64,000 bases of DNA from Escherichia phage JS98. The notes beneath the pieces are model-generated. The model was not told where the DNA came from, ran no database searches, and saw only the letters and a program-made list of their open reading frames with translations. Of the stretch, positions 21,765 to 41,516 are shown piece by piece. The DNA is taken from the sequence record NC_010105.1; one strand, given 5' to 3'. Position 1 is the stretch's first letter. Each line of letters starts with the position of its first letter. A program made the translations under genes and the position numbers.

Positions 21765-22337
21765 TCAACTCGTTATTTCTATCCAGTGCTTCCTGCACAA
21801 TGACACGTAAGAATCGTTGCCACCTATAGAAACTTGGGCTCCGTCCTTAATTGCGACACCATCTTGGACCCTAGCAGTCATAGTAGCTTTACGGCCGCAA
21901 TGGCACACACCTTTGTACTCAACGAGTTTATCTGCCGTAGCGAGTAATTCAGCAGAACCAGGAAACAGTTTACCCTGAAAATCAGTTCTTAGCCCGTAAC
22001 ACATAACCGGAACATTATAATTGTCTACTATCTTTGCCAGTTGTTTTATCTGTGCAGGTTCTAAGAACTGTGCTTCATCCACAAACACACAGTGGATATC
22101 TTTTTGAGATTCAGCCCAACGATAGAACTCGTATAGGTCCATATCCGGAGTCACTGCATTAGCCTCTTGACTAATCCCTATACGAGACGAAATGGTATGG
22201 CTTGATTCTCTATTGTCTATCGCAGGCTTTAAAAGGAGCACGCCCATACCATGTTCTTTGTAGTTATGAGCTGCCGTTAGCAATGAAGCGGTCTTACCTG
22301 AGTTCATTGCCGCATAATGAAAATAAAGTTGAGCCAT
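21765..22337 (-). CDS. tk: thymidine kinase
   Basis: 190 aa; P-loop AAMNSGKTASLL, VFVDEAQFL and C-terminal Cys cluster; colinear with T4 Tk. Confidence 0.93.
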   Translation of the reverse strand: MAQLYFHYAAMNSGKTASLLTAAHNYKEHGMGVLLLKPAIDNRESSHTISSRIGISQEANAVTPDMDLYEFYRWAESQKDIHCVFVDEAQFLEPAQIKQLAKIVDNYNVPVMCYGLRTDFQGKLFPGSAELLATADKLVEYKGVCHCGRKATMTARVQDGVAIKDGAQVSIGGNDSYVSLCRKHWIEITS

Positions 22338-22346
22338 ATTACCTTC

Positions 22347-22532
22347 TTAAAGCGTATTCACATAAGCTATTAATTCGTTTTCTTTCTCATCAAACCGATC
22401 AGCAAATTCTTCTTGCTGTTCAGGAGATAGCGGACCATATTCATCGTAAAAAGCGTTTGCTTCGGTATGTTCATCCAAAAGCTCGTGAATAAGCTCAAAC
22501 AATCTACTTTTCTGACTAATACTTAAACTCAT
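22347..22532 (-). CDS. hypothetical acidic protein (61 aa)
   Basis: Intact ORF. Confidence 0.4.
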   Translation of the reverse strand: MSLSISQKSRLFELIHELLDEHTEANAFYDEYGPLSPEQQEEFADRFDEKENELIAYVNTL

Positions 22533-22735
22533 TTAGGTTCACCATATCGCACAAATTTAGGATGTTCGCAATAACCAGAATGAAAACCTTCACCCTTATG
22601 ATTGGAACATCCTTTATTAGAACAGTACCACCAGTAATCAAATTCGCATTCCATTCCATCGTTGCATAAAGCTGCGATTACTGGCCATTCGCATTTTTCA
22701 CATTTAGCCGTTTTAAGAATTCTGGCTTGGCTCAT
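22529..22735 (-). CDS. Cys-rich small protein (about 68 aa)
   Basis: Start at MSQARILK with ATGA overlap to upstream stop; eight Cys. Confidence 0.4.
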   Translation of the reverse strand: MSQARILKTAKCEKCEWPVIAALCNDGMECEFDYWWYCSNKGCSNHKGEGFHSGYCEHPKFVRYGEPK

Positions 22736-22944
22736 AACCATTGCACCTTTAAGCAATATTCTTCTACATGCTGTTTACGTTTATTTTTATCTATAAAAGT
22801 ATATTCAACGTATTCACCAATATACCATTTATCGGTGTTATGCTGACTTTTTATAGGGCATTTAGTTACTCGAGTTTCGGTCCAGCGCCGAATAATTTCC
22901 GCTTTGTTTTTAGGGTCAAACGGATGTGGGTAATGTGCTTTCAT
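22732..22944 (-). CDS. hypothetical protein (70 aa)
   Basis: Intact ORF. Confidence 0.35.
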   Translation of the reverse strand: MKAHYPHPFDPKNKAEIIRRWTETRVTKCPIKSQHNTDKWYIGEYVEYTFIDKNKRKQHVEEYCLKVQWL

Positions 22945-23395
22945 AATCCACCACTATTAAATCAATATCAGGGGTAAACATATCAATTAATTGAGAAACC
23001 TTGTCCCAATCACCACCAGCAATACCACAACCAATGCGAGGAATATAAATTCTTGGTTTAAACAAAAGGTCATTTGCTTGTAGATTTAATTCTATCATAC
23101 AGTTTACTAAAGCACCGTAATCAAGATTAGGGCCTGGTTCGTATTGGGTGTATAAATTATAGCACATTGCAAATCCATTAGGCTTATGTTTAAAAACAAT
23201 AGACATATCACCTAATTTATCACGAGAGCCGTATTCGGTAGTAGTCTTATCAATTTCTAAAATTTTAGGATAAGCTCTTGCTAATTGACCCGCTACACCT
23301 GAACCCATAGTGTGAAAACAATTACACCCATGTGCAATAATATTACCTTGGAGAAACAGGGCGACGATATCGCCCTTAATATAATCAATAATCAT
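22916..23395 (-). CDS. macro-domain protein (ADP-ribose binding/processing fold)
   Basis: N-terminal IIAHGCNCFHTMGSGVAGQL and later IPRIGCGIAGGDW match the two glycine-rich macro-domain motifs. Confidence 0.55.
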   Translation of the reverse strand: MIIDYIKGDIVALFLQGNIIAHGCNCFHTMGSGVAGQLARAYPKILEIDKTTTEYGSRDKLGDMSIVFKHKPNGFAMCYNLYTQYEPGPNLDYGALVNCMIELNLQANDLLFKPRIYIPRIGCGIAGGDWDKVSQLIDMFTPDIDLIVVDYESTLPTSV

Positions 23396-23748
23396 TTAGA
23401 GTTTAGCCCTCGGTTGTAAGAGTCAACGAGTCTGTCTACCATAGACGCGCACATTTCTTTGTACTTTTTATCAGATGGAACACATTCAGTAACGTTTAGA
23501 CGTTGCTCGTATCTTTTAGAAAGAGTTTTCTCTTTCATTCGGCGATGCTCGACGTCGTTCTGCCCATCTTTAAAAGCAGCTGTTATTTTTGAACTGAATT
23601 CAATAACACATTCAGTATTACTCGGATGACAATAATCTTTTGCTGTACGGGTGGCATACTCGACAATTGAATTATTTGTATCATCAACCTGTGATGCTAA
23701 TACTCCCGGAGCAATCAACATAAGCGCTATAGTCATCTGTTTAATCAT
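23392..23748 (-). CDS. hypothetical secreted protein (118 aa)
   Basis: Signal-like MIKQMTIALMLIAPGVLASQ. Confidence 0.4.
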   Translation of the reverse strand: MIKQMTIALMLIAPGVLASQVDDTNNSIVEYATRTAKDYCHPSNTECVIEFSSKITAAFKDGQNDVEHRRMKEKTLSKRYEQRLNVTECVPSDKKYKEMCASMVDRLVDSYNRGLNSK

Positions 23749-24288
23749 TTAATATACCGCCTCAAACATCTTTTTAGATTTTAGGTAATTGGCCTTTTCT
23801 AGAACTTCGGAAGCATATTTACTGCCTGCTTTGACATTCCAGCCCGCATTATAAGAAGCAATCGCTTTTCTCAGGTCACCTTTGTGAACATTAATCCAAT
23901 AAGACAGCTCAATGTAGGCCCAAGAGGCACTGTTCTGTCGTTTTTGGACCATACGAATTATTTCTTTGTCTGACATCTTCCAACCTACCTGTTGAACACG
24001 ACTTCTTAACGTAGGCAAGTAATTTTGGAACATGCCATAAGCATGGTGCTTATCTTTATTTAAACCTTGATTAATTCCAGCAGATGATTCCTGCCATAAT
24101 AATCCGGCCATTATATATCCTAATCCTTTTTGATTAGGGTTTTCTTTGAACTTTCCCGACTTTTGGTATTGTTCACCGAAAGCATACGCATAATGTAAAT
24201 TATCGAGTTGTTCATTACTGAAAGTAGGCTCTACGCTATAGGCAGACATACTAACTGTCAATAGTAAAGTGGCTAATACTTTTTTCAT
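23749..24288 (-). CDS. secreted lytic-transglycosylase-like protein
   Basis: Signal peptide MKKVLATLLLTVSMSAYS; WQESS and AYNAG motifs resemble SLT-domain catalytic and substrate-binding motifs. Confidence 0.45.
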   Translation of the reverse strand: MKKVLATLLLTVSMSAYSVEPTFSNEQLDNLHYAYAFGEQYQKSGKFKENPNQKGLGYIMAGLLWQESSAGINQGLNKDKHHAYGMFQNYLPTLRSRVQQVGWKMSDKEIIRMVQKRQNSASWAYIELSYWINVHKGDLRKAIASYNAGWNVKAGSKYASEVLEKANYLKSKKMFEAVY

Positions 24289-24300
24289 GAGACCTCATTA

Positions 24301-24759
24301 TTAAAGATAGATTACTTTCGTGCTGGTTTTACCTTCTAAACGTTTAGAGTTAACAAATGCCATACGACATTTTAATGAATATCCTTTATCAGGATGTTTA
24401 CGATCTACGGTCATACCCAACCATAAGGTTTTATCGGTAATCTCGAGACGCAGTGGACGATACACTTTACCTGGGACAATTTCAGATTCTACGTCAGGAA
24501 GAGGCTCCTGGATTAAAAATTCATGGATTTCTTTAACATGATTGTGGAGCTTCTTGAACAAAGAGAAAACATATTTTTCGTCAATTTCACGTTGGATAGC
24601 ACGGTCCAACAAGTGATTAGAGTACTTAATAAAGAAAGCTGGGACACCGCTCTTAATGGCGGCTTTTTTGATGGACGCGTTAAGTTCACGAAATTCGGTT
24701 TCGAACTGACGACGTAATTTGTTGCGGCGGATGAATACTTCTGAATTAATTTCTGACAT
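24301..24759 (-). CDS. regB: endoribonuclease RegB
   Basis: Start at MSEINSEVFIRRNKLRR (ATG 24757-24759); colinear with T4 RegB. Confidence 0.88.
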   Translation of the reverse strand: MSEINSEVFIRRNKLRRQFETEFRELNASIKKAAIKSGVPAFFIKYSNHLLDRAIQREIDEKYVFSLFKKLHNHVKEIHEFLIQEPLPDVESEIVPGKVYRPLRLEITDKTLWLGMTVDRKHPDKGYSLKCRMAFVNSKRLEGKTSTKVIYL

Positions 24760-24778
24760 TTTGTAATCTCCTGTAGTT

Positions 24779-24816
24779 GATAGGTCTATAGTACCATGTC
24801 TACAGGAGATGTAAAC
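24779..24816 (-). promoter_or_regulatory. conserved early-promoter cassette (PeSL-like) with inverted repeat TCCTGTAG/CTACAGGA
   Basis: Minus-strand GTTTACATCTCCTGTAGACATGGTACTATAGACCTATCAACTACAGGAG upstream of regB. Confidence 0.55.
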
Positions 24817-24821
24817 TGCTT

Positions 24822-25100
24822 TTAGTATTTTTCTTCGGGTTGGAAAACAGAACGACAGGCCCACATGGAGGCTTCTTTCAAGCGTTCTATTGCCGTACGA
24901 ATCTGGGCGAGACGTTCATGAGTGAGGTCGAATTCTTCATCACTCATTTTATCAACACCTGAGCATGTAAAGGCTTCAACGTATTCTTCTTCTAATGCTT
25001 TAAAGATTAAGCCTAATCGAACTTCAGCATCTTTAATGGCATTCACTTTACTGATTTTATCGTCGGTATGTGGCTTGTAACCCTTGATATCTTCAATCAT
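24822..25100 (-). CDS. hypothetical small protein (92 aa)
   Basis: Intact ORF between denV and regB. Confidence 0.4.
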   Translation of the reverse strand: MIEDIKGYKPHTDDKISKVNAIKDAEVRLGLIFKALEEEYVEAFTCSGVDKMSDEEFDLTHERLAQIRTAIERLKEASMWACRSVFQPEEKY

Positions 25101-25315
25101 TTCACTTCCTCATCAGATGCAATATCATATTCTACAAAACGAAGGCCATCGTATCCACCACTAACAGAGATATACGTAGTCGGGTAAACAATTTCTTTAC
25201 CATTCCATTGGCCACCGTCCCAACATTCCATAAAGCCTTGTTCGCCCTGTTCGTGGAACCAGTCAACAAACATCTTCAGGGCTTCATCAGAGCCTTCAAT
25301 TGTCAATTTAGACAT
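25097..25315 (-). CDS. hypothetical protein (72 aa)
   Basis: Intact ORF. Confidence 0.35.
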   Translation of the reverse strand: MSKLTIEGSDEALKMFVDWFHEQGEQGFMECWDGGQWNGKEIVYPTTYISVSGGYDGLRFVEYDIASDEEVK

Positions 25316-25604
25316 ATTTTTTCCAGTCAGAAATCATATGAATCTCTTGGTCATACGTCAAGAGACTGCGAGTTATAATACCCTTACAAGGCCCAGAGAT
25401 GAACTCGAGGGTGAAGTAAGGAACCTGTTTCATTAATCGGATACTAGGAGCGTGGCATCTAAAACGAGAGCCCTTAAAGGGCCCTGACATGAATACGTAT
25501 TCTAATGGATAGAAATAAGCATATTCGAAATTTGCAGTAAGGTCCTCTCTTCGAACCTTACGTGAGAAATAACAGAACTCAAAAAGTTCTTCATCGGTCA
25601 TCAT
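25308..25604 (-). CDS. hypothetical protein (98 aa)
   Basis: Intact ORF. Confidence 0.35.
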   Translation of the reverse strand: MMTDEELFEFCYFSRKVRREDLTANFEYAYFYPLEYVFMSGPFKGSRFRCHAPSIRLMKQVPYFTLEFISGPCKGIITRSLLTYDQEIHMISDWKKYV

Positions 25605-26197
25605 TGCATTCCTATCACAAAGAACAGAGGGCGAGTAGTTTGATTGCTTTCTTCACATGATGCACGACAGCAATGTTGCACCACCTTTATATGGGCATCA
25701 TAAATCTTATCCATATCAGGTGTTTTAACAGGCTCATCAATTATATACAGAACCCGTGAAAGTGATAATCCACGGAATTTGCATGCAGTGTTACCAATAA
25801 AACTACGAACAGAATCAGTGTACAAACGGTACTTAATACTTTCTGTATGGTTATTAAAATATTCCTTTCGGATTGCAGCAGCCGAAACATTAGCATACGC
25901 GGCGCAATTAGACAAAATAATTACAGTCCCGCCACCTGCGAGCCAATCAGACGCAAAAATGGATACTGCCCTTGTTTTACCAGATTGGCGTCCACCATCA
26001 AGTTTTAGGGTGCAGCATTCTTTAAACAGGGTTTGTGAATCAGGTACATAAAACCCACTATTACAAATGTGTTCTACTCTAGCATCAGAATGGTTTGCAA
26101 AAGCATTCATCAGGGATAGATAACTACCGGTTAAAAACGTTTTCATAATTGTCTCTTTTTTAAGTTGGGGCCATTCCTTGGCACATAATTCATCCAT
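25601..26197 (-). CDS. P-loop NTPase-like protein
   Basis: Walker A-like GGRQSGKT and Walker B-like VLYIIDE. Confidence 0.45.
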   Translation of the reverse strand: MDELCAKEWPQLKKETIMKTFLTGSYLSLMNAFANHSDARVEHICNSGFYVPDSQTLFKECCTLKLDGGRQSGKTRAVSIFASDWLAGGGTVIILSNCAAYANVSAAAIRKEYFNNHTESIKYRLYTDSVRSFIGNTACKFRGLSLSRVLYIIDEPVKTPDMDKIYDAHIKVVQHCCRASCEESNQTTRPLFFVIGMQ

Positions 26198-26309
26198 GTA
26201 TCCGTATGTAAACCCTTTACCGCACTTGGGCTCGACCTTATTACAGGTAGGGAAAGGTCCATCACTCAGAGGACGCGACGTTCATGAGGAGAGGGCCGGC
26301 TTGCCTTTA

Positions 26310-26609
26310 TTAGAAAGAACCAGAACCTTTAATTGTGTTCTGGCGACCTTTATTTTCCAATTCGGAGTGGTCGATTTCGTATGCTTGGGCTACACCAAAG
26401 GCTTTTTTAACTTTAGCTAAAGAGCCTTTAGATGTAACAATATTAAAAGTATTACCTTTAGTAAAATCAACCAAATCCACTTGTACGCCCTGTTTACCGA
26501 GGCTTGCTACAATAGCATCAACATATTCTTGGTCTAAGGTGCCTTGGACACCTATTTGGAATGCTTTAGGAGCTTTGGCTTCTGTAATAAATTCTTGATA
26601 AGTTTTCAT
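26310..26609 (-). CDS. internal-protein-like (capsid-targeted) protein
   Basis: N-terminal MKTYQEFITEA matches the T4 internal-protein capsid-targeting leader. Confidence 0.5.
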   Translation of the reverse strand: MKTYQEFITEAKAPKAFQIGVQGTLDQEYVDAIVASLGKQGVQVDLVDFTKGNTFNIVTSKGSLAKVKKAFGVAQAYEIDHSELENKGRQNTIKGSGSF

Positions 26610-26651
26610 ATTATTCCTTAAGTTGATAGAAGTATTCTATCACGGATTTAA

Positions 26652-27068
26652 TTAAGCGTAAATAGCCTTGCCGTAGTGTTTGTACCAGGTAGGACGTTGT
26701 GCAATTTTTTCGTCCAAACGAGCTTGTGAAATAGCGATAGAAGCTTCGTGAGGAACATAATCACCACGGAATTCCTGAGGAATATCACTAATGTCCTGGA
26801 CCGTAGTATCCTTGATATTAAAGCCACGTTTTAAACATTCGGCTATAAGCTCGATTTGACGCTTACGTAAAAATTCAAGCTTATCATAAAAGAATGTAAC
26901 GTGGCCTGTACCAAGGATAAAAGTAGGGCTGATTTTAAAATCACGAACACGTTTACCGTTAGCAACATGCTTACGAACTGCACCGAAAACACGTGGTAAT
27001 TCACGATATTCAGCCATTAAGTGTTGGTCAGCCAATTCAGATACTAAGGTAAGGTTGATACGAGTCAT
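26652..27068 (-). CDS. denV: endonuclease V (pyrimidine-dimer DNA glycosylase) DenV
   Basis: 138 aa, [41 protein letters not shown]..., near-identical to T4 DenV. Confidence 0.95.
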
Positions 27069-27086
27069 TTTTAATCTCCTGTAGTT

Positions 27087-27124
27087 GATAGGTCTATAGT
27101 ATCATGCCTACAGGAGAAGTAAAC
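27087..27124 (-). promoter_or_regulatory. conserved early-promoter cassette (PeSL-like); inverted repeat CTCCTGTAG/CTACAGGAG pairs the spacer with the denV RBS
   Basis: Minus-strand AAGTTTACTTCTCCTGTAGGCATGATACTATAGACCTATCAACTACAGGAGATTAAAAATG. Confidence 0.55.
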
Positions 27125-27523
27125 TTATTTGTAAGTTTTCATCCAATTCTTGAACAGAGCTGCAACGTCTTTCTCTTTAACGTTCAATTTAACGTCCAGC
27201 ATTTTGCCACCGGCGGCACGTGTCTGACGAATCTTGGCCGTACCGGTTTCGCCATTCCACTCAACATAATACTGCCCGGTGTTCATAGCGATACCATCGC
27301 CATAGTCTTCGTTCTTAGAAGTAGTGAATGCCAACTTCATGGTCTTAGAGACACGGGCCTGCATGCCTGTCTGCAGAGCGTTACGAACGCGAATAACCTG
27401 AGGAGTGGCCTGGGTTAGGTTCTCGTTCAGTTCTTCGGTGAACTCTTCTGATTCAAACATTGCCAAAAGTTCAGCGGGCGCCGGGATTACAGCTTCGGCG
27501 ATAAATTCATTATAAGTTTTCAT
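27125..27523 (-). CDS. ipII: internal protein II-like
   Basis: MKTYNEFIAEA leader; position between denV and ipIII as in T4. Confidence 0.6.
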   Translation of the reverse strand: MKTYNEFIAEAVIPAPAELLAMFESEEFTEELNENLTQATPQVIRVRNALQTGMQARVSKTMKLAFTTSKNEDYGDGIAMNTGQYYVEWNGETGTAKIRQTRAAGGKMLDVKLNVKEKDVAALFKNWMKTYK

Positions 27524-27563
27524 ATAGGTCCTTTAAAGGTAAATGTGTTTAAGTATAGGCTTA

Positions 27564-28160
27564 TTAATTACCACGGGCTGCATTAGCAACGGCGTAAGCG
27601 TACTGAATATTAGCGTCTTTAAACGTACCTTTAGAGGTATCTAGTTCTGCCTTAAAGCCGGCCTTAGTCATAACATCGGCAAATTCTTTACGGAAAGCCA
27701 TTGTATCAAGACCTTTCCATGCTGATTTATGCTTGGCAAATTCAAGACCAGCGAAGTTGACTGCTTTAGCCAATTTATTATCAATAGTCCATTTACCTGC
27801 TTTAGGTACAAATACCGGACCTTTCTGTTTAGAGAACAGTTTTAAATTCCAGCGACGAAGGTCGCCGTCGGCTTTAACAAAAGCTGCGTCCAAGTTACTA
27901 GCAACAACATCTTGAATATGGCCAAATTTAAGCCCATCAGCTTCAATATTTAGGTCGTTACGCCAGCGAAGTCCTTCCCAGGCGAAAGCTTTAAAGTCGG
28001 AAGCTTTTGTAGCTAAATACCGTTCAATAGGAGCTGTTTTAGCGTCAAAGCCGTTTCCTGGGTTGTCAACGCCGTTTCCTCGGTAGGTCCACTCATCTTT
28101 ATTAATGCCTTTGACCTTTCCTGCAGTAGCTTCGGCGATAAATTCTTTATACGTTTTCAT
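27564..28160 (-). CDS. ipIII: internal protein III-like
   Basis: MKTYKEFIAEA leader, 198 aa basic protein, position next to e as in T4. Confidence 0.6.
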   Translation of the reverse strand: MKTYKEFIAEATAGKVKGINKDEWTYRGNGVDNPGNGFDAKTAPIERYLATKASDFKAFAWEGLRWRNDLNIEADGLKFGHIQDVVASNLDAAFVKADGDLRRWNLKLFSKQKGPVFVPKAGKWTIDNKLAKAVNFAGLEFAKHKSAWKGLDTMAFRKEFADVMTKAGFKAELDTSKGTFKDANIQYAYAVANAARGN

Positions 28161-40259: not shown

Positions 40260-40553
40260 TTATTTTGTAATTTCTTTGATTTTAGAAACTACTTTATCTT
40301 TGGTAAGACCGGAAAAAGTCTTATATTTTGTAAAGTGGATATCATCACCAAGATTAATATAATATTTCTTTTTAACCGTATTGAATGCTATACTAACAGG
40401 TTTACCATTTACTGTAATAGTAATTTGCTGAGCCTTATCAACATCACCTGAGCCAAAGGCTCTTTTAATATCGCTACTAATATCGGCCATAGCCGCTTTG
40501 TTAATGGAATACAAATCTGTCGATTCTTTGATAAATTCTTGATAAGTTTTCAT
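40260..40553 (-). CDS. ipI: internal protein I-like
   Basis: MKTYQEFIKES capsid-targeting leader, 97 aa, located next to 57B as ipI is in T4. Confidence 0.55.
   Translation of the reverse strand: MKTYQEFIKESTDLYSINKAAMADISSDIKRAFGSGDVDKAQQITITVNGKPVSIAFNTVKKKYYINLGDDIHFTKYKTFSGLTKDKVVSKIKEITK

Positions 40554-40632: not shown

Positions 40633-41516
<884 letters not shown>

Follow-up and report, generated by a model that had tools for sequence, protein, structure and literature searches.

The window, that is, the whole 64,000-nt stretch of phage JS98 DNA analysed here, contains a 92-aa, ATG-initiated open reading frame (ORF) at 24822..25100 on the minus strand, whose predicted product has the sequence MIEDIKGYKPHTDDKISKVNAIKDAEVRLGLIFKALEEEYVEAFTCSGVDKMSDEEFDLTHERLAQIRTAIERLKEASMWACRSVFQPEEKY. 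A GAGG motif, read from the sequence as its Shine-Dalgarno (SD) element, is situated 6-7 nt 5' of the ATG, and this start codon (25098-25100) shares the tetranucleotide ATGA with the TGA stop codon of a 72-aa ORF (orf72) located before it, implying translational coupling. The original prediction had described a helical protein of 92 aa encoded directly upstream of regB, among the small ORFs between denV and regB. This description is borne out by the ORF listing of the window, by a structural model with helices at residues 13-46 and 54-85 and by the flanking genes: regB (Pfam REGB_T4, 233 bits) follows downstream after a spacer of 62 nt, and denV, whose product is 97.8% identical to T4 DenV, lies upstream (Table 1).

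Several comparisons place this DNA among the T-even phages. A megablast search with positions 22000-28000 returned Dhakavirus phages, with JS10 and MN04 at 97.8% each and further ones at 93-95%. MN04 is assigned to the species Dhakavirus JS98, and a 5,276-bp stretch around the 92-aa ORF is identical in the IMG/VR locus L005. The window is thus a JS98/JS10-like T-even phage of the genus Dhakavirus. Its gene order in this region is denV, a gene resembling those for internal proteins (IP-like), vs.8, vs.7, orf72, vs.4, regB, vs.1 and vs, compared to denV, vs.8, vs.7, vs.6, vs.5, vs.4, vs.3, regB, vs.1 and vs in T4. The vs.8, vs.7 and orf72 genes are packed in a row (25097..26146, minus strand) with overlapping stop and start codons, and a promoter-like sequence is found upstream of them; vs.4 is probably transcribed with them as a single unit. 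Across 46 related viral loci, one neighbour of vs.4 is always orf72 or vs.6 and the other vs.3 or regB, and the gene order is kept in more than 40 T-even-like loci. Searches of the window with T4 Vs.5 and Vs.6 (tblastn) yielded nothing significant.

Table 1. Positions of the genes and sequence elements discussed in the text (window coordinates).
Feature	Position	Strand	Description
vs.4/acb2 CDS	24822..25100	-	92 aa + stop; predicted cyclic-dinucleotide sponge, two-helix hairpin
vs.4 codons 1-23	25032..25100	-	N-terminal arm and start of helix 1; equivalents of cGAMP-contact residues Y8, H11, K23; helix cap T12
vs.4 codons 34-69	24894..25001	-	hypervariable hairpin tip; 5-aa insertion relative to T4; includes A65, R68
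vs.4 codons 70-92	24825..24893	-	base of helix 2 and C-terminal tail; A70, A77, A81 (hexamer interface), S78, R83, F86 (cGAMP contact), E72
vs.4 Shine-Dalgarno GAGG	25108..25111	-	sequence reading
orf72	25097-25315	-	72-aa ORF; phrog_1986
vs.7	25308-25604	-	homology to T4 vs.7
vs.8	25601-26146	-	homology to T4 vs.8
Promoter-like sequence upstream of vs.8	26212-26185		GTTTACA-16-AATTAT
denV	26652-27068		T4 DenV orthologue
regB	24301-24759		RegB
Promoter-like sequence upstream of regB	24815-24788	-	GTTTACA-16-TACTAT, T4 early type
regB-leader stem, 5' arm	24800-24810		within the promoter spacer
regB-leader stem, 3' arm	24766-24776		regB Shine-Dalgarno region; GGAG at 24768-24771
acb1	40839..41294	-	T4 57B orthologue; 151 aa, 84% identity to T4 57B; Pfam PF23474 Acb1, 197.9 bits
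tk.4	22916-23395	-	159 aa; Macro domain PF01661, 34 bits

Database comparisons of the 92-aa protein consistently point to a single family. The Pfam model PF24729 (Acb2_Tad1_hairpin) matches over its full length (positions 1-58 of 58) with 59.2 bits (E=4.7e-16), well above the cutoff of 27, and the protein falls into phrog_717 (E=1.5e-27), the PHROG in which homologues of T4 Vs.4 had been found (Jenson et al., 2023; PMC10097602). Among the PDB sequences, the only significant single-sequence match is the entry 7UQ2, "Vs.4", which aligns end to end (E=1e-29); reciprocally, T4 Vs.4 identifies positions 24825-25100 of the window in a tblastn search with 65.6% identity (E=1.6e-33). A profile built from 36 homologues improves the match to 7UQ2 to E=1.1e-41 and additionally recovers the structures of PaMx33 Acb2 (8H2J/8H2X/8H39/8IXZ; E=1.9e-5), with Y11 and K26 of PaMx33 aligned to Y8 and K23 of the 92-aa protein. 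A search of NCBIfam provided no model for either this protein or the neighbouring 72-aa ORF. These alignments identify the gene as the orthologue of T4 vs.4 (acb2) in Dhakavirus. The original prediction had gone no further than stating that size and position would fit Acb2, had asked for pairwise alignments with T4 Vs.4 and other Acb2 proteins, and had named a lack of similarity to the Acb2 family as the outcome that would speak against it; the opposite was found.

This gene family is already known: it was described in 2023, including its structure and mechanism. Annotation of its members is uneven: the record of the sister phage JS10 labels the orthologue as vs.4, and several close relatives are named "Acb2/Tad1 hairpin domain-containing protein" in UniRef. 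MN04 encodes a protein that is 100% identical and is labelled "hypothetical protein", as is the case in most of the 40 phage records listed. In these entries, the gene can be renamed acb2 with confidence.

The predicted fold agrees with this assignment. An AlphaFold2 (AF2) model based on an alignment of 36 homologues consists of a two-helix hairpin (pLDDT 83.6), and thereby matches the Acb2 protomer of about 90 aa, which is composed of two long antiparallel helices with N- and C-terminal arms. In a Foldseek search of the PDB with this model, ranks 1-3 were occupied by chains of 7UQ2 (E about 1e-6, TM 0.69-0.77) and ranks 4-6 by the Acb2 structures 8H2X/8H2J (TM about 0.69), with about 14% identity in the structural alignment.

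The residues required for Acb2 function are known from studies of T4 Vs.4. There, Y8 and F82 stack on cGAMP via pi interactions, Y8, H11, K23 and R79 contribute hydrogen bonds or salt bridges, and the hexamer binds three cGAMP molecules with a Kd of about 30 nM (PMC10097602). Function was lost upon mutation of Y8 or F82 and of the hexamer-interface residues L29, A66, A73 and A77; F33A partly destabilised the hexamer, and a screen returned the mutations T12I, S74N and A77I (PMC10097602). In a global alignment, the T4 residues Y8, H11, T12, K23, L29, F33, L60, A66, A73, S74, A77, R79 and F82 all recur unchanged in the window protein, where A66, A73, S74, A77, R79 and F82 are numbered A70, A77, S78, A81, R83 and F86. 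Every cGAMP-contact and hexamer-interface residue reported for T4 (PMC10097602) is thus conserved, the interface being kept as L29, F33, A70, A77 and A81. Eight positions (Y8, H11, K23, A70, S78, A81, R83 and F86) show no variation across all 36 of the diverse homologues. From T4 Vs.4 and PaMx33 Acb2 we infer hexamer formation for the window protein, and likewise cGAMP binding, ligand range and inhibition of CBASS. An AF2 prediction of six copies joined by 25-aa Gly-Ser linkers, with nine homologues, remained at low confidence (pTM 0.30, pLDDT 48.3) and is uninformative either way.

Conservation is distributed unevenly along the protein. Identity to T4 Vs.4 amounts to 30/33 in the N-terminal segment (T4 residues 1-33) and 19/23 in the C-terminal one (T4 residues 66-88), compared to 12/31 in the hairpin tip (aa 34-69), which comprises about one third of the protein and carries the 5-aa insertion. 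Among the homologues, the length of the tip varies from 31 to 41 aa. Nei-Gojobori dN/dS values were determined for 39 distinct orthologous coding sequences, whose synonymous sites are heavily diverged, and amounted to about 0.10 for aa 1-33, 0.30-0.45 for aa 34-69, the fastest-evolving segment, and about 0.05-0.09 for aa 70-92. These ratios and the synonymous divergence demonstrate that the ORF at 24822..25100 is a real gene under selection, far beyond what a chance ORF would display. A tblastn search matched its protein in 1,230 phage records, and in 1,226 of these the match spans the full length. The ends that form the pocket are under strong purifying selection. For the hairpin tip, positive selection was sought, and values of 0.85-1.33 were reached only in pairs with saturated synonymous sites; the tip is consequently read as a segment of relaxed constraint, and no diversifying selection is claimed.

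These observations can be combined into a model to which we assign a probability of about 90%: the product of this Dhakavirus vs.4/acb2 orthologue would be a hexameric sponge for cyclic dinucleotides that keeps a CBASS effector inactive. In this model, Vs.4 would be translated from the tightly coupled vs.8-vs.7-orf72-vs.4 message, and the 92-aa two-helix hairpins would assemble into an interlocked hexamer, a trimer of dimers. Three pockets would be formed at the dimer interfaces, in which Y8 and F86 would stack on the purine bases, while H11, K23, S78 and R83 would bind the phosphates and riboses. Each pocket would capture one molecule of 3',3'-cGAMP or a related cyclic dinucleotide. With the signal sequestered, the CBASS effector would stay inactive and the phage could complete its cycle. 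Vs.4 would act alongside Acb1, which degrades such signals.

The alternative that fares best accepts the Acb2 fold and questions the ligand. It proposes a shifted or widened range, in which either a working three-fold pocket binds cyclic trinucleotides or another signal, or the protein acts as a Thoeris (3'cADPR) sponge like Acb2_43, instead of or besides binding cGAMP. In PaMx33 Acb2, R67 and T74 bind cyclic trinucleotides in a second pocket, which is lined by A70 and I71 (Cao et al., PMC10312549). The equivalents in the window protein are A65, E72, R68 and T69, respectively. Together with E37, these positions also deviate from T4 (E37, A65, R68, T69 and E72 vs. Y37, D61, T64, I65 and T68). 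Dhakavirus-type Vs.4 therefore differs from the T4 protein exactly at the second pocket on the three-fold axis, in addition to having a tip that is 5 aa longer, and the ligand range beyond dinucleotides cannot simply be read from T4. Further points in favour of this alternative are that R68 would set three arginines around the axis, that the hairpin tip evolves faster than the rest of the protein and that Acb2 homologues with Thoeris specificity exist (PMC12393519). In addition, testing for cA3 trinucleotides covered the T4 version, an atypical type with Thr at the R68 position, and CHI14 only.

Other comparative evidence argues against an altered range. Loss of cGAMP binding is unlikely, as the dinucleotide pocket is intact and invariant. 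Neither of the residues essential for cA3 binding in PaMx33 (R67 and T74) is conserved. T4 Acb2 (D61, T68) and CHI14 Acb2 do not bind cA3, which for T4 is partly explained by a helix 2 that lacks the pocket-enlarging kink of PaMx33 (PMC10312549). CHI14 Acb2 retains R67 and lacks T74, and a Glu at this position, as in the window protein, can be deduced from the E76T mutant described in the same study (PMC10312549). The Pro65-Gly66 kink of PaMx33 has no counterpart: helix 54-85 contains neither Pro nor Gly and is predicted as one continuous helix. All features of the dual-pocket subtype (PaMx33/JBD67 type), namely R67, T74 and a kinked helix 2, are accordingly absent. The monomer model (DSSP) contains no strands like the extra terminal ones from which Acb2_43 builds its 3'cADPR pocket, although such strands might form only in the oligomer. 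Finally, the dN/dS of the tip indicates relaxed constraint and not positive selection. On balance, a shifted or widened ligand range appears improbable. Based on A65 and E72 at the positions of the cA3-binding residues and the missing kink in helix 2, we predict binding of dinucleotides only, as for the T4 and CHI14 homologues.

A more specific variant of the same idea concerns the common "QIR" type, which carries Arg at the position of PaMx33 A70 in 17/36 homologues, including the window protein (R68). It could form an arginine-lined pocket that binds a second class of immune signals, a suggestion to which we attach a low probability, slightly below that of an altered range in general. If true, the anti-defence range of these phages would be wider than that of T4 Acb2.

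According to a second alternative, vs.4 would be decaying or have lost its function, a fate proposed in the literature for the acb2 alleles of T2 and PaMx41. Decay could be favoured by pressure from Panoptes-type systems: T4 Acb2 triggers the Panoptes system OptSE through its nucleotide binding, which is both required and sufficient for this, and Y8A and F82C abolish the response; Panoptes selects for loss of acb2, and natural defective alleles have been reported (PMC12657218). Split vs.4 matches at two related loci (L045 and L047) would fit such a scenario. In the window, however, the frame is intact and of full length with an SD element and a coupled start, all binding and interface residues are preserved, purifying selection is strong, and the protein is 97-100% identical in several phages. 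We thus consider decay very improbable. In the sponge model favoured above, the intact pocket predicts that the phage is sensitive to Panoptes.

The weakest alternative, in which the ORF would be the positional counterpart of T4 vs.3, is suggested by the T4 order vs.4, vs.3, regB and by the length of T4 Vs.3, which is likewise 92 aa, and can be dismissed with near certainty, since a tblastn search of the window with T4 Vs.3 yields nothing even at E<=10, whereas T4 Vs.4 matches at 1.6e-33, since the close relatives L007 and L016 possess vs.3 as well as vs.4, arranged as vs.4, vs.3, regB, and since vs.3 is cleanly absent in the DNA alignment. This alignment of positions 24760-24821 with L016 and with L007 (2777-3049) places the absence of vs.3 between the vs.4 stop codon and a point just before the regB promoter. 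Because vs.3 is absent, vs.4 abuts regB in the window. The assignment to the T4 vs.4 position by the original prediction hence requires a distinction: by sequence the gene is vs.4, but the T4 gene next to regB is vs.3. The vs.3 gene is missing in the window as well as in L005, L006 and L008, and is present in L007, whose Vs.4 is 99% identical, and in many other relatives. Its presence or absence is a recent gain or loss of a single gene, beside the promoter and stem element of regB.

This regB element was observed in the spacer between vs.4 and regB, where a sequence resembling a T4-type early promoter is found (Table 1). An 11-bp stem pairs the promoter spacer with the SD region of regB; its RNA fold has a free energy of -19.2 kcal/mol (z=-3.4). 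Conservation of the stem was assessed by folding each sequence individually and by counting pairs anchored at the SD. In 26/30 distinct regB leaders from related phages (mean z -4.9), the promoter spacer base-pairs with the SD. These 26 leaders contain 14 different stem sequences, and four positions show at least three types of Watson-Crick pairs, a sign of compensatory change. RNAalifold reported no structure on a MAFFT alignment of the same leaders, in which the 3' arms are out of register. The 5' arm is located upstream of the expected transcription start, so that only transcripts reading through from vs.4 would hold both arms. Consequently, the regB SD would be masked on long read-through transcripts and accessible on those initiated at the regB promoter. 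The SD sequence GGAG doubles as the cleavage site of RegB itself, an enzyme that needs single-stranded RNA (PMC1702504; PMC3014915). A reading of the element as a PeSL cassette was rejected, as the published PeSL stem-loops are situated upstream of the promoter and thus exhibit a different geometry. No description of this hairpin was found in the RegB (PMC1702504; PMC3014915) or PeSL literature examined.

Other genes in the window were noted as well. The 72-aa ORF, without a match in Pfam or NCBIfam, precedes vs.4 in most T-even relatives, sometimes with vs.6 in between. Its first approximately 16 aa resemble T4 Vs.5 (MSKLTIEGSDEALKMF vs. MAKIIIEGSEDVLNAF). In three T4-like loci (L021, L025 and L026), the vs.5 match is split over two frames, which suggests that vs.5 of T4-type phages may be what remains of the 72-aa ORF gene after a frameshift. 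By its location alone, the 72-aa ORF is a candidate anti-defence partner of vs.4. The vs.8 gene (region 25601-26197, minus strand) encodes a P-loop-like GGRQSGKT motif and shows sub-threshold Pfam matches to Terminase_6N (E=0.002) and AAA_30 (E=0.03). For the N-terminal extension of T4 Vs.8, all matches in the window (26163-26259) lie in other reading frames, indicating that the start of vs.8 is shifted. The tk.4 orthologue contains a Macro domain, and its product is possibly an ADP-ribose-processing enzyme encoded in the same early-gene block as vs.4.

Five small genes on the minus strand (26310-26609, 27125-27523, 27564-28160, 40260-40553 and 40633-40842) share the leader MK(T/S)Y(Q/N/K)EF(I/L) with T4 IpII; in T4, this leader targets internal proteins to the capsid. 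One of the five matches phrog_2667, "internal head protein", and as a group they resemble a diversified repertoire of injected internal proteins. In T4, some proteins of this kind counter host defences.

Farther upstream of vs.4, the window encodes the orthologue of T4 57B, in which both HxT motifs (HSTI and HITL) are visible. Going by these homologies, the phage carries both known anti-CBASS genes of T4, acb1 and acb2. The combination of Acb1 with an intact Acb2 would predict evasion of cGAMP-type CBASS and vulnerability to guard systems of the Panoptes type. JS98-like phages have been considered for phage therapy of E. coli diarrhoea, and their Acb1/Acb2 content is relevant to the prediction of their host range.

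Among the known systems, T4 Vs.4/Acb2 (7UQ2; Jenson et al., 2023; PMC10097602) is closest, as a full-length homologue with the same hairpin fold and in the same neighbourhood between denV and regB. Both proteins share the N-terminus (MIEDIKGYKPHT) and the C-terminus (LKEASMWACR.VFQPEEKY). They differ in length (88 aa in T4), in the hairpin tip and in the three-fold pocket, where Y37, D61, T64 and T68 of T4 are replaced by E37, A65, R68 and E72. The surroundings differ in that the 72-aa ORF takes the place of T4 vs.5/vs.6, and in the absence of vs.3, which in T4 separates vs.4 from regB. PaMx33 Acb2 (8H2J, 8H2X, 8IXZ; Huiting et al., 2023; Cao et al., PMC10312549) belongs to the same family and has the same fold, with Y11/K26 corresponding to Y8/K23. 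It possesses R67, T74 and the Pro-Gly kink, in place of which the window protein has A65, E72 and an unkinked helix; high-affinity binding of cA3, as in PaMx33, is hence not expected from the sequence.

Two further systems delimit the proposed function. The Thoeris-inhibiting Acb2_43 is a hexameric hairpin sponge of the Acb2 family, to which the window protein also belongs (Hadary et al., 2025; PMC12393519). It does not inhibit CBASS, and beta-strands added at both termini form its 3'cADPR pocket (PMC12393519). In the window protein, in contrast, no strands are predicted and the canonical Tyr/Lys dinucleotide pocket is retained. Acb1 (T4 57B), encoded in the window as in T4, has the same target, the cyclic oligonucleotide signals of CBASS, but is unrelated in fold and mechanism: it degrades these signals enzymatically as a phosphodiesterase, whereas Acb2 sequesters them.
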